Source of the DNA: an uncultured Bifidobacteriaceae bacterium
GTDB lineage: Bacteria > Bacteroidota > Bacteroidia > Chitinophagales > UBA10324
Assembly (NCBI GenBank): GCA_964424455.1
Contig: CAYRJA010000002.1
Location: 7,236-71,235, forward strand
DNA: 64,000 nucleotides
Direction of reading: 5' to 3'
Below the pieces are notes generated by a model, which was given only the letters and a program-made list of their open reading frames with translations, made no database searches and was not told where the DNA came from. Below, one piece after another: positions 2,920-59,999 of the stretch (positions are counted from its first letter, which is position 1; every line of letters starts with the position of its first letter). The translations under genes were made by a program, and so were the position numbers.

Positions 2920-3966
2920 TTGTTCATGAAAAGAAACATTCTCTACCTTCTTCTTCTTGCAATACTTGCAATGGCTGTTTACTATTTTGTAGTAAAGCAG
3001 CAAAACTCTACTCTGGCAGAAGATGAAATGAACTTTGCAGTGGAAGACACTGCTGCCGTCGGTAAAATTCTGATTGCTGATATGAATGGGAAGAAAATTG
3101 CACTGGCAAGAAAACAAGACGGATGGTGGGTGAATGATAAATATCCGGCCCGAAAAGATGCAGTAGAACTTCTGCTTTCAACCATAAGAAATATCAGAAT
3201 AAAATTTCCGGTAGCAGAAGCGGCAAACGATAATGTGGTGAAAGAGCTTGCCACTCAGAATAAGAAGGTTGATATTTTTGACCGGAATGGTAACCTGTTA
3301 CAATCCTATTTTGTCGGAGGATCCACAGCAGATGGCACAGCTAATTATATGAAAACGGAAAAGGGAGAACATCCCTTTGCAGTAGGTATTCCCGGATTTG
3401 CCGGAACTGTAAGCATACGATATATAGTCAACGAAAATGAAATGCGCAGCAGAGATATTTTCAATACGCCACTCAACAGAATTAAAAGTGTAAAAGTGGA
3501 ATACCCTATGAAACCGGATAGCTCATTCATGCTTACTGTTTGGGGTATTGATTCATTTACTGTAACACGACTGAAAGATAATTCTGTATTTGATCATAGA
3601 TCAGTAAACAAAGACAGAGTAGGCACTTACCTTTCTATGTTTCGTTTTATCAATGCAGAAGCTTATGATAATGATAACAAAGGGAAAGACACCATTTTGA
3701 TTCAGAAGCCATTTTGTATTATATCGCTTACCAACAGAAATGAAGAAGTGAAAACGGCTACTTGTTACTATAAGCCTGTTACAGTTACAACGAAACAACA
3801 GTATGACCAGCACGGCAATCCGATGAATTATGATTCAGACCACTATTACGCAACCATCAATGAAGGAAAAGATTTTGTGCTGATTCAGCAATTTCACTTC
3901 GGTCAATTATTTAAAGCAGTAAGTTTCTTCCTAAAAGCTCCGCTTAGTAAGAAGAGAGTCAGATGA
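2920..3966 (+). CDS. DUF4340-like membrane-anchored protein (usual gldG neighbour)
   Basis: 348-aa ORF with an N-terminal anchor (ILYLLLLAILAMAVYYFVV). Its position downstream of gldFG is typical for DUF4340 proteins. Family assigned from memory. Confidence 0.55.
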   Translation: MFMKRNILYLLLLAILAMAVYYFVVKQQNSTLAEDEMNFAVEDTAAVGKILIADMNGKKIALARKQDGWWVNDKYPARKDAVELLLSTIRNIRIKFPVAEAANDNVVKELATQNKKVDIFDRNGNLLQSYFVGGSTADGTANYMKTEKGEHPFAVGIPGFAGTVSIRYIVNENEMRSRDIFNTPLNRIKSVKVEYPMKPDSSFMLTVWGIDSFTVTRLKDNSVFDHRSVNKDRVGTYLSMFRFINAEAYDNDNKGKDTILIQKPFCIISLTNRNEEVKTATCYYKPVTVTTKQQYDQHGNPMNYDSDHYYATINEGKDFVLIQQFHFGQLFKAVSFFLKAPLSKKRVR

Positions 3967-12108: not shown

Positions 12109-13755
12109 ATGCCAACACTCCATTTTAAAGGAAAAACATTTGTGCAGAACCACCATTTGGCGGTGAAGTATCACCAACTTGTTCCTAAAAAGGAATTGAG
12201 TTTAACCGATAATATCTCTTTACACGATAACCTGATTATACAAGGCGACAACCTGAAGGCATTAAAGGCATTGCTGCCTACTTATGCAGGAAAAGTGAAG
12301 TGCATTTACATTGACCCACCTTACAACACAGGAAATGAAAATTGGGTTTACAACGATAATGTAAACAGCCCGATGATTAAAGATTGGTTAGGTAAAGTAG
12401 TTGACAAAGAAGATTTGACAAGGCACGACAAATGGCTTTGCCTGATGATGCCACGATTGAAATTGCTTCGTGAGTTGTTGAGTGAAGATGGTGCAATTTT
12501 TATTTCTTGCGATGATAACGAACAGCATAATTTGAGAGTGCTGTTGGATGAAATTTTTGGTGAATTGAATTTTCGAAATACTTTAATAATCAGGAGAGGT
12601 GTAAAGAGTGTTCAAGCACAATTCAAAACTATTGACCGTTTAAATTATGGTGCAGAGTATGTCGTTTGTTATACAAAAAACACTGTATACAAATTTGAGC
12701 ATTTAGAAATTGAATTGGAAGAAGAAAAAGTTGGTAGTTGGAATAACCATTGGCGAGGAACAGATAGACCAACAATGCGATACAGACTTTTTAATATCAA
12801 ACCAGAAATGGGGCAATGGCGTTGGAGTGAAGATAGAAGTTTGAAAGCAGTCGAAAATTACAAGATGATGATCAAAGAAATTGGAAAAAAAGAAAATGAA
12901 ATTTCTCAAGACGAAATTGATAGTTGGTATTTGAAGTATGTTGAAGAAAATGATGAAGAACTTGATTTACTTCGTCTATCTCAAAACGGGAAACCCGAAC
13001 ATTACATTGCTTCATCTGATACAAAACTTGTAAGTAGCTTGTGGAGCGACTTAAAACCTAATGGAAATTCTCAACTCAAACATATCTTTGGGAAGAAAAT
13101 TTTCGATACCCCGAAGTCAGTTGATTTGCTTAAAAGAATAATCAGATTTATTTGTGGAGAAGATAAAAATTCCATTATCCTTGACAGCTTCGCAGGATCA
13201 GGCACAACAGCACATGCGGTTTTAGAATTGAATAAAGAAGATGGCGGCAACCGCAAATTTCTTTTGGTGGAGCAGGAAGATTATGCAAACACAATCACAG
13301 CCGAAAGAGTTAGGAGAGTAATCAAAGGTGTAAAGACAGCAAAGAATGAAAAACTAAAAAAAGGTTTAGGCGGAACTTTCAGTTACTTTGAATTGGGAAA
13401 AGAGATTGAGATGGAAAGCATACTGAGAGGAAAACATTTGCCATCGTTCAAAGAATTTGCCCGCTATCTTTTTTACACAGCCACAGGCGAGGAGTTCAAC
13501 GAAAAAGTCGTGAATGAAAAAACGGGCTTCATCGGTGAAAGCAAAAACCATGAAGTGTATCTGCATTACAAACCCGACACCGAATGGCTGAAAAAAAATG
13601 CGCTGACACTGGAAGAAGTAAAAGCGTTTCCGAAATTCAAAAGCAAGCAGCGTTTGGTTTTTGCCCCTGCAAAATATGTTGACGATTACACCTTGCTTGA
13701 ACACCGAATTGATTTTTGCCAACTGCCTTACGAAATTTACCGCATACAGAAATGA
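12109..13755 (+). CDS. mod: Type III restriction-modification methyltransferase (Mod, adenine-specific)
   Basis: Motif IV CIYIDPPYNTG is followed about 290 aa later by motif I LDSFAGSGTTAHAV. The gene is overlapped (ATGA) by a helicase-nuclease gene. Confidence 0.85.
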   Translation: MPTLHFKGKTFVQNHHLAVKYHQLVPKKELSLTDNISLHDNLIIQGDNLKALKALLPTYAGKVKCIYIDPPYNTGNENWVYNDNVNSPMIKDWLGKVVDKEDLTRHDKWLCLMMPRLKLLRELLSEDGAIFISCDDNEQHNLRVLLDEIFGELNFRNTLIIRRGVKSVQAQFKTIDRLNYGAEYVVCYTKNTVYKFEHLEIELEEEKVGSWNNHWRGTDRPTMRYRLFNIKPEMGQWRWSEDRSLKAVENYKMMIKEIGKKENEISQDEIDSWYLKYVEENDEELDLLRLSQNGKPEHYIASSDTKLVSSLWSDLKPNGNSQLKHIFGKKIFDTPKSVDLLKRIIRFICGEDKNSIILDSFAGSGTTAHAVLELNKEDGGNRKFLLVEQEDYANTITAERVRRVIKGVKTAKNEKLKKGLGGTFSYFELGKEIEMESILRGKHLPSFKEFARYLFYTATGEEFNEKVVNEKTGFIGESKNHEVYLHYKPDTEWLKKNALTLEEVKAFPKFKSKQRLVFAPAKYVDDYTLLEHRIDFCQLPYEIYRIQK

Positions 13756-16271
13756 AGCTGAAACATTATCAGGAAAAAGTTTTGACTACGCTCAAAGATT
13801 ACCTGAGTGCGCTGAATGATTTTAAAGCGAAGTATGAAAAGTTGTTGGAGGTTGACCCTGACCTTGCAAAAGAAATTGATTTTCCCAAGCGTGCGTTCAC
13901 ACAAGCGACCAACAGAAATATTTATCACAACAAAACAAACGGACTTCACGAACCTTTGCCCGATGTGTATTTGAAAGTTCCGACAGGCGGAGGAAAAACA
14001 TTATTGGCTTGCCACAGCATTGATTTAATTCAGAAATCATATCTTAAAAAACAAACGGGTTTAGTGTTGTGGGTTGTGCCATCAACACAGATTTACAGGC
14101 AAACAATTTCGGCTCTTAAAAATCGTGAGCATCCATACAGACAGATATTGGATATTTCAAGCGGAGGTAAAACGCTTATCAAAGAGAAAACTGAAATGTT
14201 CAACCGCCTTGATGTAGAAGAAAATTTAGTGGTGCTGATGCTGATGTTGCCTTCGGCAAACAGGCAGAATAAAGAAACGCTGAAAGTGTTTCGTGATGCA
14301 GGCGGCTTCACCGATTTTTTTCCGAATGAAGATAATTACCATGCACAAAAAGAATTGCTGAATAAAATTCCAAACCTTGATTGCTTTGGACAGGAAGGAG
14401 AAGTTTTTCAAATGCAAATAAAAACTTCGTTGGGCAACACACTCAAAACATTGAAGCCGCTTGTTGTAATTGATGAGGGACACAGGGCTTACGGTGAACA
14501 GGCACGAAACACAATTAGAAATTTCAATCCCAGTTTTATTCTTGAACTTTCTGCAACTCCCCCACCCAACAGTAATGAGTTGGTAAAAATTACAGGGCGT
14601 GAGCTGCACGAAGAAGAAATGATTAAGTTGGATATTCACCTGACCAACAAAACAAGTTTGGATTGGAAAGATACTATGCTTGCAAGTTTTGAAAAACGAA
14701 ATGAATTAGAAAAGAAAGCAAAAGAATACGAACAGAACACAGGCGAATACATCAGACCAATTTGTTTGATACAAGTTGAACGCACAGGCAAAGACCAGCG
14801 AGGCAGCGATTTTATTCATGCAGAAGATGCGAAAGAATATCTGATTAAGAAATGCAATGTTCCCGAAAAACATATTGCCATCAAGAGCAGTGAGAAAGAT
14901 GATATTGAGGGAATAGATTTGTTTGCTCACGATTGTGATATACGCTACATCATTACAAAGCAAGCGTTGCAGGAAGGTTGGGACTGTTCGTATGCATACA
15001 TACTTACCATACTTACAAATCCGCAATCAGCCACAGGCATTACACAATTGGTAGGAAGAATTTTAAGGCAACCGCAAGCGATAAAAACCAAAGTGAAAGA
15101 GTTGGATGAATGTTACATCTACACCTACAAACCAAACGCAGTAACATTAGTAAGAGAAATTAAAAACGGTTTGGAGAGTGAAGGACTTGGCGACATTGCA
15201 GGAAGATTAGTAAGTGATGATGAAGTTTCAGGAGACAGTTCTTTGAAAGACCGTGATTTGAAATACAGACCGAACTTCAAAAAGTTTGAAGGGAAAATTT
15301 ATCTGCCAAAATTTGTGATACAGGAAAAAGAAAGTTGGAGAGATATAATTTTTGAAGCAGATATTTTGAACGGCATTGAGTGGAGCAAAATTGATGTGAG
15401 TGAAATTGCAGACCGAACTTTAAGCGACAAGCAAAGCAAAGAACAAGAATTGACTTTGGGTTTGAGCAAAGAAGAAAAAGAATTGTTGGAAGAAACAGGA
15501 AGGTTGGAAACAAAAGGAACATTAGAATTGGATGAAGCATTTTTAGCAAGACAGTTGAGTGATGTTGTTCCCAATCCCTGGGTTGCTTTTGAGTTAGGAC
15601 ACACAGCCATCAAACAACTTTCAAAAAAATACAGCAGAGAAATAATTGCTGCCAATTTTGTTTTTGTGATTGAAGAACTGAAAAAGATTTTGGAGAAAGA
15701 GAAGAACCGCTTGGCAGAAGATGTTTTCAAAAAATTGTTGGACAAGAAAAAACTTTGTTTCTTTTTGCTGAAAGAAGAAGGTCATCATTTACTGCCGACA
15801 CATATCAAAGTGAAAAGCAATCGCCAGTTGGTGCGTTCCGACAACTCACCCATTCAGCAATCTTTGTTTGACTATGTTCCCGAAGAAGATTTGAACGACA
15901 CAGAAAAAACAGTAGCCATTTATTTGGATGAACAAGAGCAGTTACTTTGGTGGTATCGCAACCGAGTGAGAAAAGATTTTCACATTCAAGGTTGGCAGCG
16001 AAATAAAATTTACCCTGACTTCATTGCTGCAAAATCAAGCAAGACAAAGAAGGACGACTACGATACCGTTTATGTTTTGGAAACAAAAGGCGTTCACCTG
16101 AAAGAGAATGACGACACTCGCTACAAGAAAAATGTATTTTCACTTTGCAATGAGTTAGGAGCTAAAAAAGCATGGAAAGAACTGTTTGACGAATTCCCCG
16201 ACCACGATTTTGAATTTCAGGTTGTGTTTGAAGATGAATGGCAAAATGAAATGAATACGATAATGCTATAA
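13752..16271 (+). CDS. res: Type III restriction enzyme Res subunit (SF2 helicase with C-terminal PD-(D/E)xK nuclease)
   Basis: Helicase motif I VPTGGGKT, motif II VVIDEGH, motif III LSATP and motif VI QLVGRILR. The C-terminal nuclease motif is IYPDF...VYVLETKG. The ATG at 13752 overlaps the mod stop (ATGA); the track start at 13716 was trimmed. Confidence 0.8.
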   Translation: MKLKHYQEKVLTTLKDYLSALNDFKAKYEKLLEVDPDLAKEIDFPKRAFTQATNRNIYHNKTNGLHEPLPDVYLKVPTGGGKTLLACHSIDLIQKSYLKKQTGLVLWVVPSTQIYRQTISALKNREHPYRQILDISSGGKTLIKEKTEMFNRLDVEENLVVLMLMLPSANRQNKETLKVFRDAGGFTDFFPNEDNYHAQKELLNKIPNLDCFGQEGEVFQMQIKTSLGNTLKTLKPLVVIDEGHRAYGEQARNTIRNFNPSFILELSATPPPNSNELVKITGRELHEEEMIKLDIHLTNKTSLDWKDTMLASFEKRNELEKKAKEYEQNTGEYIRPICLIQVERTGKDQRGSDFIHAEDAKEYLIKKCNVPEKHIAIKSSEKDDIEGIDLFAHDCDIRYIITKQALQEGWDCSYAYILTILTNPQSATGITQLVGRILRQPQAIKTKVKELDECYIYTYKPNAVTLVREIKNGLESEGLGDIAGRLVSDDEVSGDSSLKDRDLKYRPNFKKFEGKIYLPKFVIQEKESWRDIIFEADILNGIEWSKIDVSEIADRTLSDKQSKEQELTLGLSKEEKELLEETGRLETKGTLELDEAFLARQLSDVVPNPWVAFELGHTAIKQLSKKYSREIIAANFVFVIEELKKILEKEKNRLAEDVFKKLLDKKKLCFFLLKEEGHHLLPTHIKVKSNRQLVRSDNSPIQQSLFDYVPEEDLNDTEKTVAIYLDEQEQLLWWYRNRVRKDFHIQGWQRNKIYPDFIAAKSSKTKKDDYDTVYVLETKGVHLKENDDTRYKKNVFSLCNELGAKKAWKELFDEFPDHDFEFQVVFEDEWQNEMNTIML

Positions 16272-28997: not shown

Positions 28998-29046
28998 ATG
29001 TGTAACAGACAGCAGATATTTTCTGCCTGTTACACATCTTTTTATT
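28998..29046 (+). terminator. intrinsic terminator built from an inverted pair of the TGTWACA word
   Basis: ATGTGTAACAG (28998-29008) pairs perfectly with CTGTTACACAT (29027-29037). An inner GCAGA/TCTGC segment (29012-16/29022-26) adds 5 bp, and the loop is 5 nt. A T5 run follows at 29039-29043. The hairpin lies between convergent genes ending at 28982 and 29052. Confidence 0.75.
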
Positions 29047-29051
29047 ACTAC

Positions 29052-29840
29052 CTATTCATAAACAAACATCATGTGGCTCATATTTCCCATCATCTTACCC
29101 AGCATGGTGTTATTGGCTGATGGGGTTGTAATGTTCAGGTTGGCTGCTTTGTTCACCTTTACACCCATAAAAAGCATGGCATAATCCGCTCCCAGATGAA
29201 TGTACTGATCCTGTCCGGGTGTTACAGTAAAATTCTTGTCCGGCATGGAGATGCGAGTGAATGCAGTGGACGTTCCCAGTTTGTAATTAAAGGGTATCAT
29301 GGCATTTGAGGCATTTGGAGCGCTTGAGGTGTCAATGGTGCCGCTGAAATTGATATACACAAACCCTTCCGGCTGTGGAGTTGCTCCAAACCACATTGAT
29401 GATTGGTTAAGTATGTTATCAGTTGAAGAAGGATTAACAGAGTTGGTTGCTGAATCTAATCCAACATAAAACCTTACTGATTTATAATTACCGGCAGGCA
29501 CTGATCCTATCTGATATTCCTTTGTGCCGTGTTTTGCAAAAAGTATTTTTCCTGTAACAGGCACTGTGGAGCCATCCAGTTTTACCAATTCAATGTTTGA
29601 AATATACATCTGTGCCATATCAATAGTAATTCTTCGCCCTTTGTCCACAAGGATATATTCTTCGCCGTAATTTTTTACTTCACTGGTGTCTGCCATTGTA
29701 TGAATATGAAAATAGAGAGTTCCGGATTCACTTTTTGGAGCAGGAGTATCTTTTTTTTCTTTCTTACATGAGATAAAAACTGTAACAGATAGAATAAACC
29801 AAATGATTAATGAGAGATTTTTATAATTAAAGTTGTTCAT
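29052..29840 (-). CDS. lipoprotein, MbnP-like (tentative), with Met-rich C-terminus
   Basis: Lipobox VFISC. The central MAQMYISNIELVKLDGS and GNYKSVRFYVGLD resemble MbnP-family copper-associated proteins, as recalled from memory. The tail is MLGKMMGNMSHMMFVYE. Confidence 0.4.
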   Translation of the reverse strand: MNNFNYKNLSLIIWFILSVTVFISCKKEKKDTPAPKSESGTLYFHIHTMADTSEVKNYGEEYILVDKGRRITIDMAQMYISNIELVKLDGSTVPVTGKILFAKHGTKEYQIGSVPAGNYKSVRFYVGLDSATNSVNPSSTDNILNQSSMWFGATPQPEGFVYINFSGTIDTSSAPNASNAMIPFNYKLGTSTAFTRISMPDKNFTVTPGQDQYIHLGADYAMLFMGVKVNKAANLNITTPSANNTMLGKMMGNMSHMMFVYE

Positions 29841-29870
29841 GATTAATTGTGTTTGAAAAAGTTTAAAAAA

Positions 29871-30968
29871 TTAAAAAGCATACCGCCAGGCAGCGTTCAA
29901 CACGCTCTGTTGCGGCTGTTGTATTCCATTAAGATGTTGATAGAGAGGTAGTCCGTATTCTACTAATACACGACTGTTCCTAACAACAGCGCCTTTTTTA
30001 AAGTAGTAGCTTAATCCGACATACCCGTTGACTAATGTTCCACCATAATTTTCAGGTGTAGCGCCCGGTTCCATCACTCTGTACAGTTGATTATCTTCAC
30101 CATGAATTGTTTCCGTGAAGGTGGCATCCACTCTGAGAGATGGGGAAAGTGAACCTAAGAACTGATAAGCTCCCCATGTATTTAGCATCAGTTTATTGCC
30201 GAGCCGGTAACCGTTTGCATTGTTATAGGTTCGCACTGTTCCTGTTGCCTGTACACTACCTTCGAAGTTTTTTGCCCGTTGAAGAAGTGTAACACCTGGA
30301 TAAAAATCAACTGTGCCGGAACCATTTTGCATCATATACGGCAGCCGCATATTGGGATACATCATATCATCTGCAACGCCTTTTTGACGGATACTTCCTA
30401 CAGGAATGTTTATGCCGCCACTTGCCATAAGTATCGTTCCTCTGCGAACAAAGAATGACCACAATGCATAGAGTTGTGCATCACCAATACCCGAAGCTTT
30501 ACTCTCCATCTCCATTAAATTCAAGCCCTCTGTACTGGGTGCAGCGGAGTGATTATGTCCACCTGCGGGTGTGTGCGAATGAGAAGCCGACAACATATTC
30601 ATCTTCATGTCAAATGAATTATAGTTGAGCATAGCCATCAGCGTAATCCGGTCCGATAAGCCATACATTCCCATCAGCATGTGCATATCCATCTTCATAG
30701 AGACAGGCGACATCAGGTAATTGTTCAGAATGGTTTCATCGGTTACCTTAGAAGTTCCGGAGATGTTGTTTTGCATTTGCATATTCATGTAGTTGTAGGA
30801 GAACATCCACATCCCTTTCAAATGTCTCATTCCTACCATTACACCTGCCGGGCTGTAGTCATCTCTGTTACAGCTACACAAAATGCTGTCACGCTTCGAT
30901 GCGAATGAAAATTCAATACTGGACAACAGTATGAGTAAACCCAAAACGGGTTTGAAATAAAATTTCAT
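29871..30968 (-). CDS. outer-membrane beta-barrel ('transporter'/MetA-pathway-like) with a Met/His-rich segment
   Basis: Signal peptide. The N-terminal third is packed with M and H (MWMFSYNYMNMQMQ, MKMDMHMLMGM, SHSHTPAGGHNHS). The rest shows beta-strand alternation and the protein ends ...WRYAF. Confidence 0.5.
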   Translation of the reverse strand: MKFYFKPVLGLLILLSSIEFSFASKRDSILCSCNRDDYSPAGVMVGMRHLKGMWMFSYNYMNMQMQNNISGTSKVTDETILNNYLMSPVSMKMDMHMLMGMYGLSDRITLMAMLNYNSFDMKMNMLSASHSHTPAGGHNHSAAPSTEGLNLMEMESKASGIGDAQLYALWSFFVRRGTILMASGGINIPVGSIRQKGVADDMMYPNMRLPYMMQNGSGTVDFYPGVTLLQRAKNFEGSVQATGTVRTYNNANGYRLGNKLMLNTWGAYQFLGSLSPSLRVDATFTETIHGEDNQLYRVMEPGATPENYGGTLVNGYVGLSYYFKKGAVVRNSRVLVEYGLPLYQHLNGIQQPQQSVLNAAWRYAF

Positions 30969-31060
30969 AACTGAAAAAATTATAGTGTAAAAAATCAGCC
31001 ACTAATAAATCATTAATGGAAACCCGGAGCTACAGAATTGTAGTTCCGTAAACTGTAACA

Positions 31061-31444
31061 CTATACTGTGGGCGGATGGAAAATGGAATTGCGGTAATGA
31101 TTTGAAATAAAATCTGATTGATAGATGGGTGAATAGGTAATGGCTTCCTGTGAAAGGAATTCAAATGAATAATCCTTTTCAAAGAAGAGTTGTAACTGTA
31201 TTTTCTCGGCAACACTATTACTTACCGGCGACTTCTCCTTTTCTTCCTGTTGCTTCATTTTTCGCATCATGTAACACTTTCCGTTACAGTGAAGTTTTGG
31301 TTTTGATTTGTTAATACAGAAATGGGAGATAATATATTCTTTATTCACCTCGTAATTCAGAACAACAGTCAGATTCGCCAGTGTATTCAGTAAGACTGCA
31401 AACACAAGGAACAAACCCGTAAGTCGTACAAGAATATTTTTCAC
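31061..31444 (-). CDS. small membrane-anchored Cys-containing protein, unknown function
   Basis: 127 aa with an N-terminal TM, then HFCINKSKPKLHCNGKCYM (three Cys). First gene of the three-gene minus-strand cluster. Confidence 0.4.
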   Translation of the reverse strand: MKNILVRLTGLFLVFAVLLNTLANLTVVLNYEVNKEYIISHFCINKSKPKLHCNGKCYMMRKMKQQEEKEKSPVSNSVAEKIQLQLFFEKDYSFEFLSQEAITYSPIYQSDFISNHYRNSIFHPPTV

Positions 31445-31512
31445 GCATCAAAAGTATTGATAAGAATTTATATTGATGTAATGATTTATATCAGTCACAA
31501 TCCGATTGGTAT

Positions 31513-31586
31513 TTCCGTCCACGCCGAATCACTGCTGCCGTGCCTTGTGCGTGTGCGAAGGACTCGGCGGAATTACTGTAACACTG
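31513..31586. repeat. hairpin repeat H, copy 1 (74 nt)
   Basis: 70/74 identical to 33558-33631. Stem arms are 31522-31530 (CGCCGAATC) and 31561-31569 (GACTCGGCG). It ends in CTGTAACAC. It lies 12 nt after the stop of the 646-aa gene and 68 nt upstream of the 127-aa gene start. Confidence 0.85.
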
Positions 31587-31598
31587 CTCATCCATCTC

Positions 31599-33539
31599 TC
31601 ACTGTTTTATGAATTTGTTGATTACCCATCCGTCTTTTGTTCTTGCCTTCAGCAGGTACATGCCGGAGGGAAGCCCGCTTACATCTATTTGAGTAGTGCG
31701 TACAGCATTCTGCGTAGTGCGTATCACTGTTTGCCCTAACAAATCTGTTACAGTTATTTCATCTCCAATTTGTAATTTGTCATTTGTAATCTGCAATTTA
31801 TCCATTGCCGGGTTGGGGCTTATTGTAATCTTACTTTCTTTCTTCTTCATTACAGCACTCACAGGAAAATCGCAGGTGACTCCTCCCGTAAAATATTTAT
31901 AGTACAAGCTCGTATCCTGATAACACAAAAGCGGTCCTTCATTATTAAAATAACTTACCGGCTGCGGCAGCATGGAAGCCAAACCTCCTATCAGTTGTGC
32001 ATAGCCATCATTACCAAAGCTCCATCCATCCAAAGGAGTAGTATAGATTCTTTTTAGGTTTTCTGTTTGTAAGATGAGCGTAGTAATGCTATCAACTATC
32101 ACTCTAAAGGTGGTATCGCTTGCACTTTGCGGCTGTGGTGTGTAGTAAGTGAGCGTGTCACCAACCTTCACATTAAACTTATACCCCTCTACAAATCTTT
32201 TCTGGTAATTGTTGTAGTACATAATGCGGTTGGTATCTCCGAATACATACAAGGGTTGTAATGCTGTATGAGTTTTATCAGGCAGGTATTGCTCTGCTAT
32301 TATTTTGCGGCAGTTGTAGCCGCTGGTGGGTGGGGTGTTCATGACAAAGGTATCTCTTGCTACCTCATAGTATTTGTAACAGCTATTGGGTTGCTGCTGC
32401 CCCTCTGCAGAGCTATTATGCCACCACCTGGTTGCTACGGGTGCGTAAGAGGAGAAGGTGCCATCTACAAATTTTACTATTTTTTTTGCAGGTATATACC
32501 CCACTGAATCAAAACTCCCCGAAATGAATAATGTATCATTGAATACTTCTAATGAAGTAAGACTAATTGAGGCTAATTTGTCACTCAATATAAAATGAGT
32601 TAAAAAATTTTCATCATATTGAAATAATCCTGTTGCATAAGAAAAACTTTTAGTCCTAAATCTTCCTAATAAATACAACTTATTATGGTAGACTTCTAAA
32701 GCGTTAAAGTTAATTATTATAATACTATCAAATTCAGGAATATTTTCCCACTTGTTACCTGTCCATCTTGCAAAACTATTTCCTTTAACCTCTCCAGCAG
32801 AGTCAAAATCGCCACCAACATACAGGTTGTATTTATATTCTTTTAAAACATTTACAAAAGCAGCTCCGGTTAATTCCGAACCTAATGAATTCCAAGAAAA
32901 GCAATTCCATTTTGCTAAACCGCTTACTTTAATAGTATCTATTTTATGAAAACCACCACCAGAATATAGCTCACCCTTAAAAAATTCCAATGCTCTTATA
33001 CTAGTCCCCACAGAAGTAACACCAATTCCCAAAGGAAAAGCATTGCCTAATGTATCAATACCACCAATCTGATAGCTATTTGTATTCTGAAATTCACCAA
33101 AAGCTCCTCCAGCGTAAATAGTATCATGTACTGACTTTAAACAGTAAACCAAACCCTCGCCACAGACGCTTTTATAACAGTGTGAAATGCTGAAACTATC
33201 TAGGGTGTAAAATGCCCAATCTGAATTATATCCTTTCATTATGACACACTCCCCTGAAGAAAGACAAGTACCGATTCCATAATCCCAAAATGATTCTGTT
33301 GGTCCCACTTGTGTTAGTTTTCCATCTCGATAAGCATAAAGCCAGGAGGTATCCAGCTCTTTCGGAAGTGCTCTATAAAAATAAGTTGAAGCATACAGCA
33401 GGTTATGAACTGTATCTGCAAACAAGGCGTTGCATGCATTTGCTTTTGACAGCTTATTGTCAAATACCGGAATAAAATACTGAGACCTTGAGTAGAGGGA
33501 AATTGAATTAAGAAATATTATTAAGAGGACTTTTTTCAT
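31599..33539 (-). CDS. secreted protein with T9SS type-A C-terminal domain, unknown function
   Basis: 646 aa with a signal peptide. The body is repetitive with GG/Y-rich beta-propeller-like segments. Tail ISPNPA...GMYLLKARTKDGWVINKFIKQ. Confidence 0.65.
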   Translation of the reverse strand: MKKVLLIIFLNSISLYSRSQYFIPVFDNKLSKANACNALFADTVHNLLYASTYFYRALPKELDTSWLYAYRDGKLTQVGPTESFWDYGIGTCLSSGECVIMKGYNSDWAFYTLDSFSISHCYKSVCGEGLVYCLKSVHDTIYAGGAFGEFQNTNSYQIGGIDTLGNAFPLGIGVTSVGTSIRALEFFKGELYSGGGFHKIDTIKVSGLAKWNCFSWNSLGSELTGAAFVNVLKEYKYNLYVGGDFDSAGEVKGNSFARWTGNKWENIPEFDSIIIINFNALEVYHNKLYLLGRFRTKSFSYATGLFQYDENFLTHFILSDKLASISLTSLEVFNDTLFISGSFDSVGYIPAKKIVKFVDGTFSSYAPVATRWWHNSSAEGQQQPNSCYKYYEVARDTFVMNTPPTSGYNCRKIIAEQYLPDKTHTALQPLYVFGDTNRIMYYNNYQKRFVEGYKFNVKVGDTLTYYTPQPQSASDTTFRVIVDSITTLILQTENLKRIYTTPLDGWSFGNDGYAQLIGGLASMLPQPVSYFNNEGPLLCYQDTSLYYKYFTGGVTCDFPVSAVMKKKESKITISPNPAMDKLQITNDKLQIGDEITVTDLLGQTVIRTTQNAVRTTQIDVSGLPSGMYLLKARTKDGWVINKFIKQ

Positions 33540-33557
33540 GGCTTTTGAAGAATTAAC

Positions 33558-33631
33558 TTCCGTCCACGCCGAGTCACTGCTGCCGTGCCTTGTGCGGGTG
33601 CGCAGGACTCGGCGGTATTACTGTAACACTG
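33558..33631. repeat. hairpin repeat H, copy 2 (74 nt)
   Basis: Perfect 9-bp stem CGCCGAGTC (33567-33575) / GACTCGGCG (33606-33614) with a 30-nt loop. It begins 18 nt upstream of the 646-aa gene start codon. Confidence 0.85.
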
Positions 33632-33740
33632 TTCGTTCATAAATTTGCCTATTGCATGAGTAAATCTAATACTATGAACAGACAACGTCAAGTAAATTAT
33701 TGTTTTGTTATGGATGCGGGCGGGGGGTTGGCTCTTTTTC

Positions 33741-34093
33741 ATCTACGCCCTTGTTGGTAAAGCTCTGCCTTGTCAGGTCTCCTGACCGACAAGCCGTTTA
33801 ACCGGCAACTCCATTTATTCTCTAACATGAGTTAAGAACTTCCACCTCATCTCATCGCTCAAAAAATAAAATGAAGCTAAACTATTTTCCGCCCCCGCAG
33901 AGTCTCCTCCGTCTTGCCTTGAGCCGTGCGAGGGACTCTGCGGCATCTACGCCCTTGTTGGTAAAGCTCTGCCCTTGTCAGGTCTCCTGACCGACAAGCC
34001 GTTTAACCGACAACTCCATTTATTCTCTAACATGAGTTAAGAACTTCCACCTCATCTCATCGCCCAAAAAATAAAATGAAGCTAAACTATTTT
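33741..34093. repeat. tandem direct duplication, period about 204 bp (two units of about 149 bp)
   Basis: 33741-33888 and 33945-34093 differ by two substitutions and one 1-nt indel. Each unit contains the bulged hairpin CTTGTC-A-GGTC TCCT GACC-GACAAG. The units are separated by the H' hairpin. Confidence 0.9.
33889..33944. repeat. hairpin repeat H' (diverged member of the H family)
   Basis: Perfect 10-bp stem CCGCAGAGTC (33895-33904) / GACTCTGCGG (33934-33943) with a 29-nt loop. It aligns to H with shared TGCCTTG.GC.GTGCG..GGACTC, and carries a compensatory C:G to A:T change in the stem. Confidence 0.75.
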
Positions 34094-34125
34094 AGCTGTC
34101 GGTCAGGAAACCTGACAGCGGCGGA

Positions 34126-34157
34126 GAGTTTACCCGCTGGCGAGTTTACCCGCTGGC
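34126..34157. repeat. 16-nt perfect tandem repeat, two copies
   Basis: GAGTTTACCCGCTGGC at 34126-34141 and again at 34142-34157. Confidence 0.9.
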
Positions 34158-34178
34158 GCAAGTGTTTTTCACTTGCGC
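34156..34178. other. perfect 9-bp GC-rich hairpin
   Basis: GCGCAAGTG (34156-34164), loop TTTTT, CACTTGCGC (34170-34178). It lies about 170 nt downstream of the nth stop. There is no clear U-tract on either strand. Confidence 0.6.
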
Positions 34179-34346
34179 TTCACTTCGCATTCATTCCTGC
34201 CGAGTTACTCCGCAATACTTTGAGCCGAAAAGAACTCAGCGACGAAATTGCAACACAGTTCATTCCACCAATCAAAATTCATTTTTTATAATGAGGCGCA
34301 CTACATATAACTTTCACTGGAATAAACATTCTTCTGCTACAGTAAG

Positions 34347-35024
34347 TCAACTATTAGCAATTTTCTTCATCTTAATTTTTGGCAAACTCTTCTGATAATA
34401 CTTACAGAGATCCCGTAGTCCGCACTCCTCACATTTAGGATTTCGTGCCAGACAGATATATCGCCCGTGCAAAATCAGCCAGTGATGTGCCAAGGATATT
34501 TTATCCTTCGGAATATATTTTATCAACTGCATTTCCGCCTGCAACGGAGTTTTTGCGCCTACAGTTAATCCGATTCTTGCGGCTACACGAAATACATGTG
34601 TATCCACAGCCATCTTCGGCTGATTGAAAATACAGGAGGCAATTACATTGGCGGTTTTTCTTCCAACGCCGGGCAACTCCTGTAACAGTTCTGTATCGCC
34701 CGGTACTTTACTGTCAAATTTCTCTACTAACATTTTTGCCATCCCGATTAAATGCTTCGTCTTGTTGTTCGGATAGCTGATACTTTTGATGAGCGGAAAT
34801 AATTCATCGAAAGAGGCGTGCGACAGTTTTTCAGGAGTAGGAAATTTTTTAAAGATGGCAGGCGTGGTCATGTTCACGCGCTTGTCGGTACATTGCGCAG
34901 AAAGAATTACCGCCACTAACAACTGATAGGGGTCTTCATATTCCAATTCCGTTTCTGCATTCGGCTGATGCTTGCTGAAATAATCAATAAACCGCCGGAA
35001 CCTTTCTTGTCTGGTCATAGGCAA
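34347..35024 (-). CDS. nth: endonuclease III
   Basis: HhH-GPD motif LPGVGRKTANV and the 4Fe-4S ligand pattern C-x6-C-x2-C-x5-C (CLARNPKCEECGLRDLC). Confidence 0.9.
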   Translation of the reverse strand: MPMTRQERFRRFIDYFSKHQPNAETELEYEDPYQLLVAVILSAQCTDKRVNMTTPAIFKKFPTPEKLSHASFDELFPLIKSISYPNNKTKHLIGMAKMLVEKFDSKVPGDTELLQELPGVGRKTANVIASCIFNQPKMAVDTHVFRVAARIGLTVGAKTPLQAEMQLIKYIPKDKISLAHHWLILHGRYICLARNPKCEECGLRDLCKYYQKSLPKIKMKKIANS

Positions 35025-52137: not shown

Positions 52138-54039
52138 TTATTTCTTAATTACTATTTTAAAATAACTCTCTCTGTTCATTTGAAGGAAATAAATTCCCTC
52201 CGTTAAATCAGGCAATCTGATTTTTCCATTAGCGTCTGTATGACCATTCAGAACATGTTCACCAATCAGATTGAATAAATTTACTTCAGTGATTTGCTCT
52301 TTCTTTAAATCATTTTTTACCAGAATATATGCTGAAGCAGGATTTGGATAAACAGAATAATTGGGTTCAGGTACCATTGATTGAACCGAAAGGTTAGGAT
52401 CATTTACAATGGCTCCGGTTTTGTTTATAATCCATTGATTCGGGTCAATAACCAATCCTGTTACAGTTCTGCTGCTTACAAAATTCAGATTTGTAACAGA
52501 ATCTGCAACGTAAATACGGACAATGGTATCGCCATCAGCATATTGAATTTTAATTTCCAAAGGAGTTTTAAAGAAAGGCGTTTTTAGAGAAGAAGCAGTT
52601 TCAGTAAGCTCAATAGACAATAGATTGTTTAGTTGCTTCCATCTGGCGTTGAATGTCGGATAACCAAAGCCATAGTACCATTGATTGAAGAAATCGGTTA
52701 AATCTTTCCCTGATGTAGCTTCCATAACATTTTTAAAATCTTTTCCTGTTGCAGCCCTACCTGAGAACTGAGTTTGATAGTTTTTTAATCCATTAAAAAA
52801 AATGCTGTCGTTATTTATTTCAAACCTAAGTGAGTTGTAAACACAAGCTGCCTTACGATAAAACATCGCCTGATCAGCAAACACACCGTTTCCAAATCCG
52901 GCAACAGAAGAGGTATCACCCGGACCATATACAGAGCCAGTTGGTTTTGACACTGCACTACCTTCAAAGTTGGTTATCCGATTGATTCGTTTAGAAGAGT
53001 TAGATATTCCTGTTTCAAACTCCTCATATATTGCGATACTGTATTCTGCAAACCCTTCATTCAATGCCACATCATTCCATGAAGCACAGGTAGTGTTACA
53101 GCCCCACCACTGATGTGCAATTTCATGCACAGCTACTCCGTCAGCGCCCATTGAGATAGAAGTCTGATTTTCTATACCGCCGGACAAATCCACCTTTGAT
53201 ATAGCAAGTTGCTCATCATAAAACGGATAAAGACCATAGAGACTGCTGAATACATCTAATATATTCTGAATAAGGTTGGAAGGATTAGGAGTGTAGTTAT
53301 AAAATTTCAACGCCATTGAATCTGTTCTGCTTTCAGGGTGCCAATATTGGACTGTTTCAGTGAAAGAGCCGACCACAAAAGAGATGTTGTAGAAGTCAAT
53401 CGGATATTTGCTTTTCCATTCCCACCGGATTTTATTATTGGGAAGTGTTACAGTATCCGCAAGTAATCCGTTTGATAGTGCTCTGGACGAGTTGCCGGTG
53501 GTAATAAAAAACCAGGATGAATCTGCTTTGTCGGTCAGCACTTGTTTACAGGGCCACCATGAGTAAGAATTGTAAGGAGGAGATGCAGAAAACTTATGAG
53601 GTGATGGATTGTTGCTGCTCCAGAATCCGGAGTTTAAGGCAGTGGAAGGAGTTGGGTTCCCATGATAAAAAATACGGGTTTCAATTATGTCATTGCTATC
53701 AGCAATAAATGGCAACTTAATATTTACCTCTGAATTTTCTCTGAGAACTTCAGCGGTCATAAATCCTCCTGAATTAATAGAGGCAAGGGCTGAATCAATT
53801 AAAAGATTTGAAGCCAGTTCAACAGCGATAGTATCTAAACCGGTTACAAGAGATTTTGACCGCATCAGTACATCGCCGGAAATTGCAGGAGAGTCTGCCT
53901 CTATGTCAAGATTCAGAAAATAAAACTTCACATCATACCGTAGTTCGCGTATTCTGTGCTCTGTAGAAGGAATAGATTGTGAGTAGCTTACAACGGTCAG
54001 TAGAAAAAAAGAAAAGAATAGGGGAGTAAATTTTTGCAT
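52138..54039 (-). CDS. M1-family zinc aminopeptidase with T9SS type-A C-terminal domain
   Basis: HEIAHQWWG followed by NEGFAEY (HExxH-18-E). Signal peptide. Tail VYPNPASAYILV...GIYFLQM. Confidence 0.8.
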   Translation of the reverse strand: MQKFTPLFFSFFLLTVVSYSQSIPSTEHRIRELRYDVKFYFLNLDIEADSPAISGDVLMRSKSLVTGLDTIAVELASNLLIDSALASINSGGFMTAEVLRENSEVNIKLPFIADSNDIIETRIFYHGNPTPSTALNSGFWSSNNPSPHKFSASPPYNSYSWWPCKQVLTDKADSSWFFITTGNSSRALSNGLLADTVTLPNNKIRWEWKSKYPIDFYNISFVVGSFTETVQYWHPESRTDSMALKFYNYTPNPSNLIQNILDVFSSLYGLYPFYDEQLAISKVDLSGGIENQTSISMGADGVAVHEIAHQWWGCNTTCASWNDVALNEGFAEYSIAIYEEFETGISNSSKRINRITNFEGSAVSKPTGSVYGPGDTSSVAGFGNGVFADQAMFYRKAACVYNSLRFEINNDSIFFNGLKNYQTQFSGRAATGKDFKNVMEATSGKDLTDFFNQWYYGFGYPTFNARWKQLNNLLSIELTETASSLKTPFFKTPLEIKIQYADGDTIVRIYVADSVTNLNFVSSRTVTGLVIDPNQWIINKTGAIVNDPNLSVQSMVPEPNYSVYPNPASAYILVKNDLKKEQITEVNLFNLIGEHVLNGHTDANGKIRLPDLTEGIYFLQMNRESYFKIVIKK

Positions 54040-57861: not shown

Positions 57862-59999
57862 CTCCCAGTATAATAAGTGAATTTGCCGGTCAACTTTACT
57901 TCCATCTTGTAATTGCTGTAAATTTTTTGATAGCTGTTACAGTTGTTATTGCCTGATGTATTCAGTACAGCCAATACAACTGCTTTTTTCGCATTGCGGA
58001 TTCGGTTCATCTTGTTATCATCTACCGGAATCTGAATCACACTCTTTGATACAGTTGAAACATGACAATTATTATCCAATATTCCGGCAGCAATTTCGTG
58101 TGGAGCCGCCATCAGCGAATCAATCAAAACGCCATAGTCATCATACAGAAACACCTGCATATTCGCTTTCAGCGGAAAACCATTTTCAGCTATCAGATTG
58201 AAAATACCATTCTTGATGGATGAACTTCCGTTGGAGTTAGTACTTCCTAAATTAAAATCCACAGTATCCGCAAACATAAGTTTGTTTGCTATAAGCGAAA
58301 GAGGAACAGACAAATCAAGTGATACATTCAGCGGGCTGTTATAGTAGGCAAAGTCACTATAGTTGTGACTATTGCCGGAAGGATTAATGAATACATCCAA
58401 TTTGTATTTCAGTTTATCCGGCAGATTTTCAATCAATGATTTGATATTTGAATTTGTGTTATCGAGATGAAAATTGGTGACGGAAGGAGCAAGGGGGAAG
58501 TCAGTGGCACGTACAATAGAAAGCGGTTGATTGACAATGGAACTTCCGGTAAGTGTTACAGTTGAGTTCCGGGACGAATTGACTGATGATAAATCATAAA
58601 GAATAATCCGCCCATCGGCGCCCACTCCATTTTCTATTCCCAGATCAACCGAAACCTTTTCCAATGCCAGCGATCCGCTTTTTATCTTTTTGAACAAATC
58701 AAAACTCTGCTCATCGGGACCAACTGTTACAATTTGCTGACCGAGATAGCCCTCTGTATAGTCGGGCACAATATCCACTAATCCATAATCAATATACACA
58801 CTGTCGCTGGTAGAAAGACTGACTTCCCTCCCGGTGGAATCAATCCGGGCAGTTACATGACTGACAAATGTGTTGTACAGATTTCCACTGATACCTTTTA
58901 AGCTAAGCGTGTAACCCGATAAATCATAACTACGATTACTTACTGTAACACCATTCGGCGGAGCAGGAGGCAATACCGTCTTTGCAAACATTGGTTTTCC
59001 GTTTGCATCTATTGCACCGGGCAGCGAGTAATCAAACTTTGAAGTATCGGCAATTGAACTCCGGATAGTAACTACCATTTTTCCACTCTTTATTTTCAGC
59101 AGATTTAACTTTGCCCCGCCACTCAGGACATAGGTAGTTTCATTGTTCTGATCAATTAAATTTTGAGAAGGGAAAACAGCGGTTGCAGATTCTACAATCA
59201 GATCATGTGCCTGCATTGTGGCTGTAAGTGCATTTGAAGTATCAATCAGTACAGAAGAACTTCCGCTGCCTGAACTTTCCAGATTAACGATGGTGGCAAC
59301 CAACTGCCCTTCCATTGTTTTTCCACTTAAGTCAATCTGTTTCGTTTGTGAGGTGTGAGGCAAAATATTCAAAAATGTCTGAGTGGAAATAATTTCTTTA
59401 CTCACTTTATTCTTAATCTGAAACACCAATTTGTCAATTGGAATTGGAAATCCGTTATCAATTTTCATATCAATAAAACCGGACTTCAGTGTTGCCGTTT
59501 TAAAAAATTTAGTGGCATCAATATCATTGTCACCGGAAGAAATGGGCGGAAAAGAAGGGATAGGAGAATAAGTACTGTTCGCCTCAATAATTGCATTACC
59601 AATAAACGCATTAACGCCGCCCGACTGAATCAACTGATGACAAAGTTCACCGAGTGAAATAGGATAAACAATAGATTGATCAGCCAATTCAAGGTTGACA
59701 ACACTATAACTTGCTTTGATAGTAGTATCAGGAATTTTAAAAGTTCGATCGGCAGGTGAGAAACCATAAAGATTCTGACTGTAAACAATCCTCAGCGAAC
59801 TATCAGTTTCAGATTGAAGTAATGTATCGTTTACTAAACTGCTCAGATCAAGAGTTGATTTTATAAGAGGAGTAAGCAGCGTGGTATTCCACCCTTCATT
59901 CAGATCATTGGATTTTCGGCATGACGAAAAAAGGAAAAAGAAGGTGCAAAAAATAATTGTACCCCTAAGTATTGCGTTCATCTTTTTCTTATTCATCAA
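57858..59999 (-). CDS. large lipoprotein, unknown family
   Basis: Lipobox FLFSSC. 713 aa, Ser/Asn/Thr-rich beta sequence. I recognise no catalytic motif. Confidence 0.4.
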   Translation of the reverse strand: MMNKKKMNAILRGTIIFCTFFFLFSSCRKSNDLNEGWNTTLLTPLIKSTLDLSSLVNDTLLQSETDSSLRIVYSQNLYGFSPADRTFKIPDTTIKASYSVVNLELADQSIVYPISLGELCHQLIQSGGVNAFIGNAIIEANSTYSPIPSFPPISSGDNDIDATKFFKTATLKSGFIDMKIDNGFPIPIDKLVFQIKNKVSKEIISTQTFLNILPHTSQTKQIDLSGKTMEGQLVATIVNLESSGSGSSSVLIDTSNALTATMQAHDLIVESATAVFPSQNLIDQNNETTYVLSGGAKLNLLKIKSGKMVVTIRSSIADTSKFDYSLPGAIDANGKPMFAKTVLPPAPPNGVTVSNRSYDLSGYTLSLKGISGNLYNTFVSHVTARIDSTGREVSLSTSDSVYIDYGLVDIVPDYTEGYLGQQIVTVGPDEQSFDLFKKIKSGSLALEKVSVDLGIENGVGADGRIILYDLSSVNSSRNSTVTLTGSSIVNQPLSIVRATDFPLAPSVTNFHLDNTNSNIKSLIENLPDKLKYKLDVFINPSGNSHNYSDFAYYNSPLNVSLDLSVPLSLIANKLMFADTVDFNLGSTNSNGSSSIKNGIFNLIAENGFPLKANMQVFLYDDYGVLIDSLMAAPHEIAAGILDNNCHVSTVSKSVIQIPVDDNKMNRIRNAKKAVVLAVLNTSGNNNCNSYQKIYSNYKMEVKLTGKFTYYTGR

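Follow-up and report, generated by a model that had tools for sequence, protein, structure and literature searches.

The 64,000-nt stretch analyzed here (contig CAYRJA010000002.1 of assembly GCA_964424455.1, positions 7,236 to 71,235; hereafter, the window) carries a minus-strand gene (31599..33539) for a protein of 646 amino acids (aa) with a signal peptide and a C-terminal Por_Secre_tail domain, the type A tail of the type IX secretion system (T9SS). Two copies of a hairpin element, which we call H, bracket this T9SS-tailed gene: H2 (33558..33640, minus strand) precedes its ATG, and H1 (31513..31595, minus strand) stands directly past its stop codon. A diverged hairpin copy, H' (33889..33944, minus strand), and a possible, strongly diverged fourth copy, H'' (34184..34247, minus strand), lie farther upstream. 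H'', H', and H2 all fall within the 807-nt spacer that separates nth (34347-35024) from the T9SS-tailed gene, H'' being ~100 nt past the nth stop codon. We examined the structure, surroundings, and distribution of H, and we tentatively read it as a palindromic DNA repeat, a reading that is weighed below against roles in RNA, in cassette exchange, and in peptide coding.

H1 and H2 form an 83-nt direct repeat (92% identity in a repeat search of the window) around a 74-nt core in which 70/74 positions are identical (94.6% by BLAST). The positions, when re-read, agreed with the core identity and the distances reported in the first-pass annotation: 12 nt from the gene stop to H1, 18 nt from H2 to the ATG, and 68 nt from H1 to the GTG of a 127-aa open reading frame (ORF). 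The H2 stem (33567-33575 and 33606-33614) is a perfect 9-bp duplex that can be extended to 13 bp. The H1 stem (31522-31530 and 31561-31569) has one G:U pair, which on the plus strand is an A-C mismatch, just as that annotation had described. Its proposal of H' as a third, diverged member also holds, since H' shares the stem-loop design, with stem CCGCAGAGTC/GACTCTGCGG and loop TGCCTTGAGCCGTGCG, shows the C:G to A:T double stem change, and aligns with H1 and H2 at scores of 41-43 against a background maximum of ~26. H' is without the 5' ATGAAC..TGTTACAG part and sits between two copies of a 150-nt unit. The stem of 9-10 bp and loop of 29-30 nt first described are right as a design, but folding predicts a 13-bp stem that includes a bulge, so that ~20 nt remain in the loop. 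Overall, the elements measure ~55-83 nt, and each has a GC-rich stem of 9-13 bp and a partly conserved loop of 20-30 nt (minus-strand CAAGGCA). The unpaired tail of the element is GKGGRCGG, next to a GAA that reads as TTC on the plus strand.

The family extends beyond the three hairpins first annotated. A fifth copy, Hx, was met by chance on metagenome contig L007, 5' of an orthologue of the T9SS-tailed gene (66% identical). A covariance model, R1, built from H1, H2, H', and Hx scores the first three at 75.5, 83.3, and 84.1 bits, respectively. Run with its filters off, the model found H'' (GCUGAGUU..CUCAAAGUA..AACUCGGC) as the sole additional candidate in the window (19.4 bits, E ~1e-3); the primary-sequence alignment of H'' on its own is not significant, so it is a weak candidate only. 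Chance falls far short of explaining these hairpins: the window has only three perfect GC-rich hairpins whose stems reach 9 bp or more, all within 33567-34178, and ~74 kb of other loci contain none save Hx in L007. The stem 9-mer, with at most one mismatch, has 11 matches in the window against 3.7 expected, and 6 of the 11 are H arms. The copies differ in folding strength: H' has a fold z score of -3.6, and the best fold of H1 is not the hairpin (z = +0.44).

Variation among the five copies preserves the structure. In their alignment, 93% of cells pair and 5 of 15 pairs are changed on both sides; the covariation score was reached by 0 of 500 shuffles, and sliding the 3' partners by 1-3 columns lowers pairing to 32-49%. 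Such high pairing together with covariation means that the H hairpin has been maintained, which bears out the structure-preserving variation claimed from the first three copies. The strand drawn from that variation, a minus-strand RNA, is not supported. Summed over all copies, G:U pairs number 4 on the minus strand and 3 on the plus strand, and mismatches number 5 and 6, respectively. Neither strand is consistently favored by folding energies, whether for RNA or for DNA: the plus strand folds slightly better for H2, the minus strand for H'. The strand argument, which rests on a single G:U pair, fails. Covariation is equally expected of a hairpin in single-stranded DNA and cannot tell it from a hairpin in RNA. 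This lack of strand preference counts against the chief rival explanation, in which the copies are gene-specific, cis-acting RNA hairpins, H2 and Hx in the 5' untranslated region (UTR) and H1 in the 3' UTR of the mRNA of the T9SS-tailed gene. They would protect the transcript ends from ribonucleases or serve as processing or protein-binding sites, with H' and H'' as relics of duplication. We regard that explanation as a serious contender, though an unlikely one.

Evidence for events at the DNA level comes from the comparison with relatives, which included those with a UvrA 83-90% identical and a Met-rich outer-membrane protein 74-88% identical. By the names that the UvrA homologues carry, the source organism is an uncultured member of Bacteroidota near Chitinophagales. 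Past H1, at 29052-31444, lies a cluster encoding a small membrane protein (127 aa), a Met/His-rich outer-membrane beta-barrel (365 aa), and MbnP (262 aa); homologues of the 365-aa beta-barrel carry PF13557, and the cluster is likely copper-related. The same cluster in relatives (88% identical in L013, 81% in L016 and L017, and 74% in L014 and L015) has no H copy. In all four relatives sampled, a divergent heavy-metal-associated (HMA) gene lies 5' of the 127/139-aa protein, the Met-rich outer-membrane protein, and MbnP. The HMA gene is missing in the window, where only part of its upstream region is left (31481..31516, plus strand, matching L013:1691-1725). Homology to L013, L014, and L017 runs from the cluster to ..GGTATTTC (..ATTTC) and then stops at CGTCCACGCC, the edge of H1; beyond this junction, the relatives continue into the HMA gene. 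The end of homology on the H1 side is within 3 nt of where the similarity between H1 and H2 ends. On the other side of the locus, an 83% relative has nth, then 79 nt, then a hemerythrin gene, with no hairpins. Judging by these alignments, the block 31517-34346 (H1, gene, H2, repeats, H', and H'') is peculiar to this genome, with a boundary that coincides with that of H1. The suggestion that H1 is a leader of the Met-rich cluster loses its footing, as the 74-88% identical clusters of relatives do without H and have the HMA gene upstream instead. An RNA role predicts neither this breakpoint at H1 nor the indel found at H2, described next.

At the H2 site, the comparison with L007 shows conserved flanks, GAACAGTRTTAC and AAGTTAATTCTYCAAAAGCCATG (~90%), around a hairpin that is a different family member, and the two loci differ by a 30-nt indel at the 3' foot of the hairpin. 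TTC stands directly 5' (plus strand) of all five copies and is also present at the unoccupied site in L013. L007 contains in addition a different GC-rich element of ~230 nt (L007:2140-2375) with 28-nt terminal inverted repeats, CCCCGTTAGCGCGCGACTGTGTCGCGTG ... CACGCGACACAGTCGCGCGCTAACGGG. This element sits 3' of the orthologous T9SS-tailed gene, at the position held by H1 in the window.

The spacer between nth and the T9SS-tailed gene is itself rich in repeats and has a GC content of 47-51%, compared with 39% for the window. It harbors a near-perfect, miniature inverted-repeat transposable element (MITE)-like long hairpin of 181 nt, LH (33955..34135, minus strand), and a partial tandem duplication (33740..34093; 205-nt period, ~1.7 copies, 98-100% identical) that contains H'. 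The duplication unit consists of the center and right arm of LH, then 16 nt, then H', and the LH center and right arm are accordingly found again 205 nt away at 98% identity. At 34126..34178, two exact copies of a 16-nt tandem repeat, GAGTTTACCCGCTGGC, are followed by a perfect 9-bp hairpin, GCGCAAGTG-N5-CACTTGCGC. This last hairpin has a T-rich tail on the plus strand, making it terminator-like on the strand without a gene. LH differs between strands: its RNA fold reaches -85.7 kcal/mol (z -9.5) on the minus strand versus -65.3 kcal/mol on the plus strand, and its arms hold 10 G:U pairs on the minus strand versus 2 on the plus strand. Two readings suit LH, an RNA made from one strand or a mobile element in decay. 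The minus-strand excess of G:U pairs in so close a neighbor is a point in favor of the RNA rival.

The layout of the locus also brings cassettes to mind. H could be an att-like site at which a circle, made of the gene and one H, integrated into a chromosomal H through site-specific or homologous recombination and left the 83-nt direct repeats, the integron-like array then reading H'' - unit - H' - unit - H2 - gene - H1. The 92-95% identical direct repeats enclose exactly one gene, all copies have one orientation, short noncoding units separate the upstream copies, the segment is absent at syntenic positions in relatives, and the junction is the edge of H1, all of which such a site would explain. 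But attC signatures (R'' RYYYAAC and R' GTTRRRY) are missing, the window encodes no integrase or recombinase, what separates the upstream copies is one sequence recently duplicated in tandem rather than a set of different cassettes, and only one gene is involved, and we consider this explanation improbable. Slightly less probable again is a bolder version, in which the H copies are recombination sites of an undescribed integron-like cassette system, unrelated to attC, in an uncultured Chitinophagales-related Bacteroidota lineage. Were it true, genes for T9SS surface proteins would be inserted, excised, or swapped as H-gene-H units via recombination of single-stranded hairpins, and the direct repeats around one variable gene, the junction at the hairpin foot, and the swap of hairpins in a relative would all be accounted for.

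The weight of evidence favors a repeat acting at the level of DNA: its boundaries fall at a synteny breakpoint and an indel, its copies share TTC, its neighbors are palindromic and tandem repeats, close relatives lack it at the orthologous positions, and its stem covariation shows no strand signal. Our best explanation, to which we give about an even chance, is that H is a family of short repeated DNA palindromes, low in copy number and restricted to its lineage, similar to the repetitive extragenic palindromic (REP) sequences and mobile or recombination-prone, and not a conserved regulatory RNA. The hairpin would form in single-stranded DNA and could be the substrate of an enzyme encoded elsewhere (an HUH/Y1 transposase, of the RAYT or IS200 type), or its structure may simply provoke illegitimate recombination at the hairpin foot; what moves or recombines H, be it an enzyme or another process, is inferred. 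Copies would spread locally by duplication, gene conversion, and recombination between copies, which may have produced the mosaic spacer 3' of nth and the near-identical copies flanking the T9SS-tailed gene and created the junction of the Met-rich cluster at the edge of H1. We propose that the compensatory changes arose because selection keeps the stem for recognition or propagation. Since the copies lie in transcribed co-directional spacers, they are probably present in mRNA too, as 5' and 3' hairpins, and a modest effect on mRNA stability could be a by-product. A REP- or MITE-like mobile hairpin had been the other option in the first-pass annotation, and it is the better fit given the homology break at the H1 edge and the repeat-rich spacer, although classic MITE and REP features are lacking.

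Several observations weigh against a mobile DNA repeat. The four copies in the window (five are known with Hx) are clustered, not dispersed. Searches with the covariance model found no H copy in the rest of the window beyond this 2.8-kb cluster, and ~93 kb of relatives' contigs yielded none apart from Hx on L007. A motif of the loop and 3' arm had four matches among 185,579 GTDB representative genomes, all at chance level and in unrelated GC-rich organisms. Patterns of H1/H2/H' and of H'/Hx had no matches among JGI metagenome contigs; the second did not recover L007 either, and the JGI collection is therefore without relevant contigs. No transposase, RAYT, integrase, or Y1/HUH enzyme is found among window ORFs of at least 110 aa. 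Described REP families have far shorter loops than H, whose loop sequence is in part conserved. The orientation of all H copies is identical and is the direction of transcription, and H2 and Hx occupy the same site 5' of orthologous genes, which fits a gene-specific RNA element as well. Finally, because the contig is metagenome assembled, the H1 junction is either a true rearrangement or a chimeric assembly join across the repeat; a chimeric join would still imply that H is a discrete multicopy repeat.

A loose arm pattern found 79 loci in viral contigs, the best scoring ~19 bits with the model, which is chance. The 807-nt spacer had no blastn match among plasmids and phages. Rfam gave no match at the gathering score for the whole window, nor at E values up to 10 for 31400-34400, and this absence of a known RNA family counts toward the DNA reading.

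The transcription context bears on the RNA rival. A promoter-like site, TTGACG-17-TAGATT (33663..33691, minus strand), lies 5' of H2 and is a consensus match only; if this site is used, H2 would be within the 5' UTR of the mRNA of the T9SS-tailed gene. Between H1 and the 127-aa ORF is a -7 box of the Bacteroidetes type, TACTTTTG, which makes a position at the 3' end of the upstream transcript more likely for H1 than one in a leader. The promoter-like site, the co-orientation of every copy with transcription, the partly conserved loop, and the shared site of H2 and Hx, where stems of 13-16 bp are kept at ~55% sequence likeness, all agree with RNA hairpins, as does the finding that the family is met only around the T9SS-tailed gene within the ~157 kb examined. 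Against them stand homologues at 38-43% identity (L005, L011, and L012) that have no such hairpin, the distance of H' and H'' from any start codon, and the weakened hairpin of H1, whose best fold is a different one. No H copy adjoins any of the window's three other T9SS cargo genes. A terminator scan calls no H copy, no T-run follows the stem, and the 3' tails are GUGGACGGAA and GGGGCGGAAAA; canonical T-run terminators are present elsewhere in the window.

H1 and H2 might also encode a small peptide of 34-35 codons, starting from an ATG at the 5' end of the repeat (MNEQCYSNTAES...). The frame is open in both copies, and in H2 it ends in ATGA, the stop overlapping the ATG of the T9SS-tailed gene. 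An open frame is nonetheless expected by chance in two 92%-identical copies, 6 of the 8 differences between H1 and H2 alter the amino acid, the frame is broken in H' by a 1-nt deletion and in Hx by a stop codon, and the overlapping 68-aa ORF has no Pfam match, so that we give this idea almost no credence.

Other candidates were tried and rejected. A decayed upstream paralogue of the T9SS-tailed gene 5' of H2 (KFMNEQ versus KFIKQ*) aligned no better than background and had no Pfam match. A palindromic operator does not agree with half-sites that undergo compensatory changes from copy to copy in a single genome, nor an intrinsic terminator with the absence of a U-tract directly 3' of the stem. 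An attC site was sought by eye: neither side of H1 shows a GTT or AAC core, and H2 has only the one-mismatch look-alikes GTTAATT and AATTAAC. The H stem arms could serve as terminal repeats of 9-13 bp, but H is not a classic MITE, since no direct duplication flanks H1, H2, or H' (TTCCGTCCA ... GTATTACTG at H2) and the conserved tails are asymmetric.

Part of the similarity between H1 and H2 is explained by an abundant 9-mer, TGTTACAGT. This 9-mer is the commonest in the window, with 39 occurrences, split between the plus (20) and minus (19) strands, where 0.5 would be expected; examples are at 250-258, 3559-3567, 29220-29228, 31052-31060, 31575-31583, 33620-33628, 53446-53454, and 58942-58950, and its extended form is S-TGTTACAGT-W. 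One copy stands directly 5' of the H2 hairpin (33620..33628, minus strand), with its H1 equivalent at 31575-31583. The shared 5' part of H1 and H2, CAGTGTTACAGTAAT, is an instance of the motif, and the TGTTACAGT copies account for most of the 5' flank that H1 and H2 have in common. Most occurrences (35 of 39) are inside ORFs, in preferred frames (V-T-V or T-V-T) and with unrelated flanks. The 9-mer is enriched in contigs of related organisms, at 0.2-0.9 per kb, and absent from unrelated ones. This pattern resembles a DNA uptake signal sequence; having no strand bias, the 9-mer is not Chi- or KOPS-like in appearance. An inverted pair of TGTTACAG forms a hairpin, ATGTGTAACAGACAGCAGAT / ATTTTCTGCCTGTTACACAT, at 28998-29037 in a spacer between convergent genes, and another such hairpin is at 52455-52502, inside the ORF at 52138-54039. 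Uptake-sequence pairs of Neisseria and Haemophilus sit between convergent genes in the same way. The literature searched held nothing on TGTTACAGT or on uptake sequences in Bacteroidota, and the uptake-signal-like 9-mer, present in this lineage at ~0.6 copies per kb, may deserve broader attention. Elsewhere in the window are a type III restriction-modification pair (12109-16271), in which a 548-aa N6/N4 methylase gene overlaps that for an 851-aa ResIII helicase-nuclease, and a solitary N6/N4 DNA methylase gene (1915-2910, 331 aa).

If H is indeed a palindromic DNA repeat, it would be one more family of such short repeats, from a poorly sampled Bacteroidota lineage, and its hairpins would mark rearrangement junctions and the flanks of genes for variable surface proteins. 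This would help with annotation and with the assessment of assembly joins in genomes built from metagenomes, and it would not be surprising. The locus would carry greater weight if the hairpins were RNA elements controlling a T9SS cargo gene or recombination sites of cassettes.

Known systems resemble H to different degrees. Like terminators and mRNA-stabilizing 3' hairpins, H1 is a GC-rich stem-loop 12 nt past a stop codon, but unlike terminators, H has no U-tract, has a loop far above the typical 3-8 nt, and is found 5' of the gene as well. Elements of the IS200/IS605 family and their gene-less derivatives (PATEs) have subterminal hairpins. Similar to these, the segment from H2 to H1 has direct hairpins at both ends, no terminal inverted repeats, and no target duplication, and one side abuts a fixed short target, here TTC (five copies and one unoccupied site). 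It differs in that it holds a gene for a secreted protein instead of tnpA or tnpB and in that the window has no Y1 transposase; cleavage and guide sequences are not identifiable from five copies. Integron attC sites, like H, are structured, imperfect palindromes of 55-85 nt in one orientation, each after a gene or unit, with a sequence that varies and a structure that is kept, and their function as single-stranded hairpins is a further likeness. H has neither the R''/R' core sites nor an integrase nearby, and its units are 98% identical duplicates.

The described REP and REPIN families (GTAG- and CGTC-tagged; Di Nocera et al. 2013, PMC3733652) are, like H, short, GC-rich, imperfect palindromes outside genes, sited after coding regions between co-directional ORFs and showing G-T pairs and compensatory stem changes. 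Stem covariation that favors no strand is likewise reported for these families, and in some genomes their clusters are interleaved with other repeats (PMC3733652). An unpaired, conserved tag next to the stem may be another common trait: H1 and H2 have CGTC, 2 nt before the stem on the plus strand. However, the tag is not kept in H (H' has CGCC, and H'' and Hx differ). Described REP families have stems of 5-13 bp and loops of 2-20 nt, and their dispersed copies, most of them inverted dimers, number from tens into the thousands; the CGTC families in particular have stems of 8-9 bp, loops of 4-5 nt, A-T first pairs, and a CCA tail (PMC3733652). H departs from both patterns: its loop is 20-30 nt with conserved sequence, it lacks the CGTC-family features, and its 4-5 copies are all direct and at one locus, whereas REP sequences are dispersed at high copy number. 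CGTC-type repeats have been reported in Bacteroidetes without an associated transposase, and the CGTC-1/dRS3 elements of Neisseria cluster in mosaic intergenic regions (PMC3733652).

The last of these comparisons can be drawn further, since the mosaics of Neisseria differ from H in some respects and approach it in others. There is no sequence relation, dRS3 is a 20-bp inverted repeat whereas H is a 50-nt stem-loop, only one cluster is present here, and nothing points to phage or IS110-type integration at H. In the intergenic mosaics of Neisseria, dRS3 palindromes are interleaved with RS units of 50-150 bp. The H locus has the same overall character, with a cluster of palindromes that alternates with repeated units of ~150 nt in a long spacer and adjoins a gene for a surface or secreted protein, in a genome with an abundant, uptake-sequence-like short motif.

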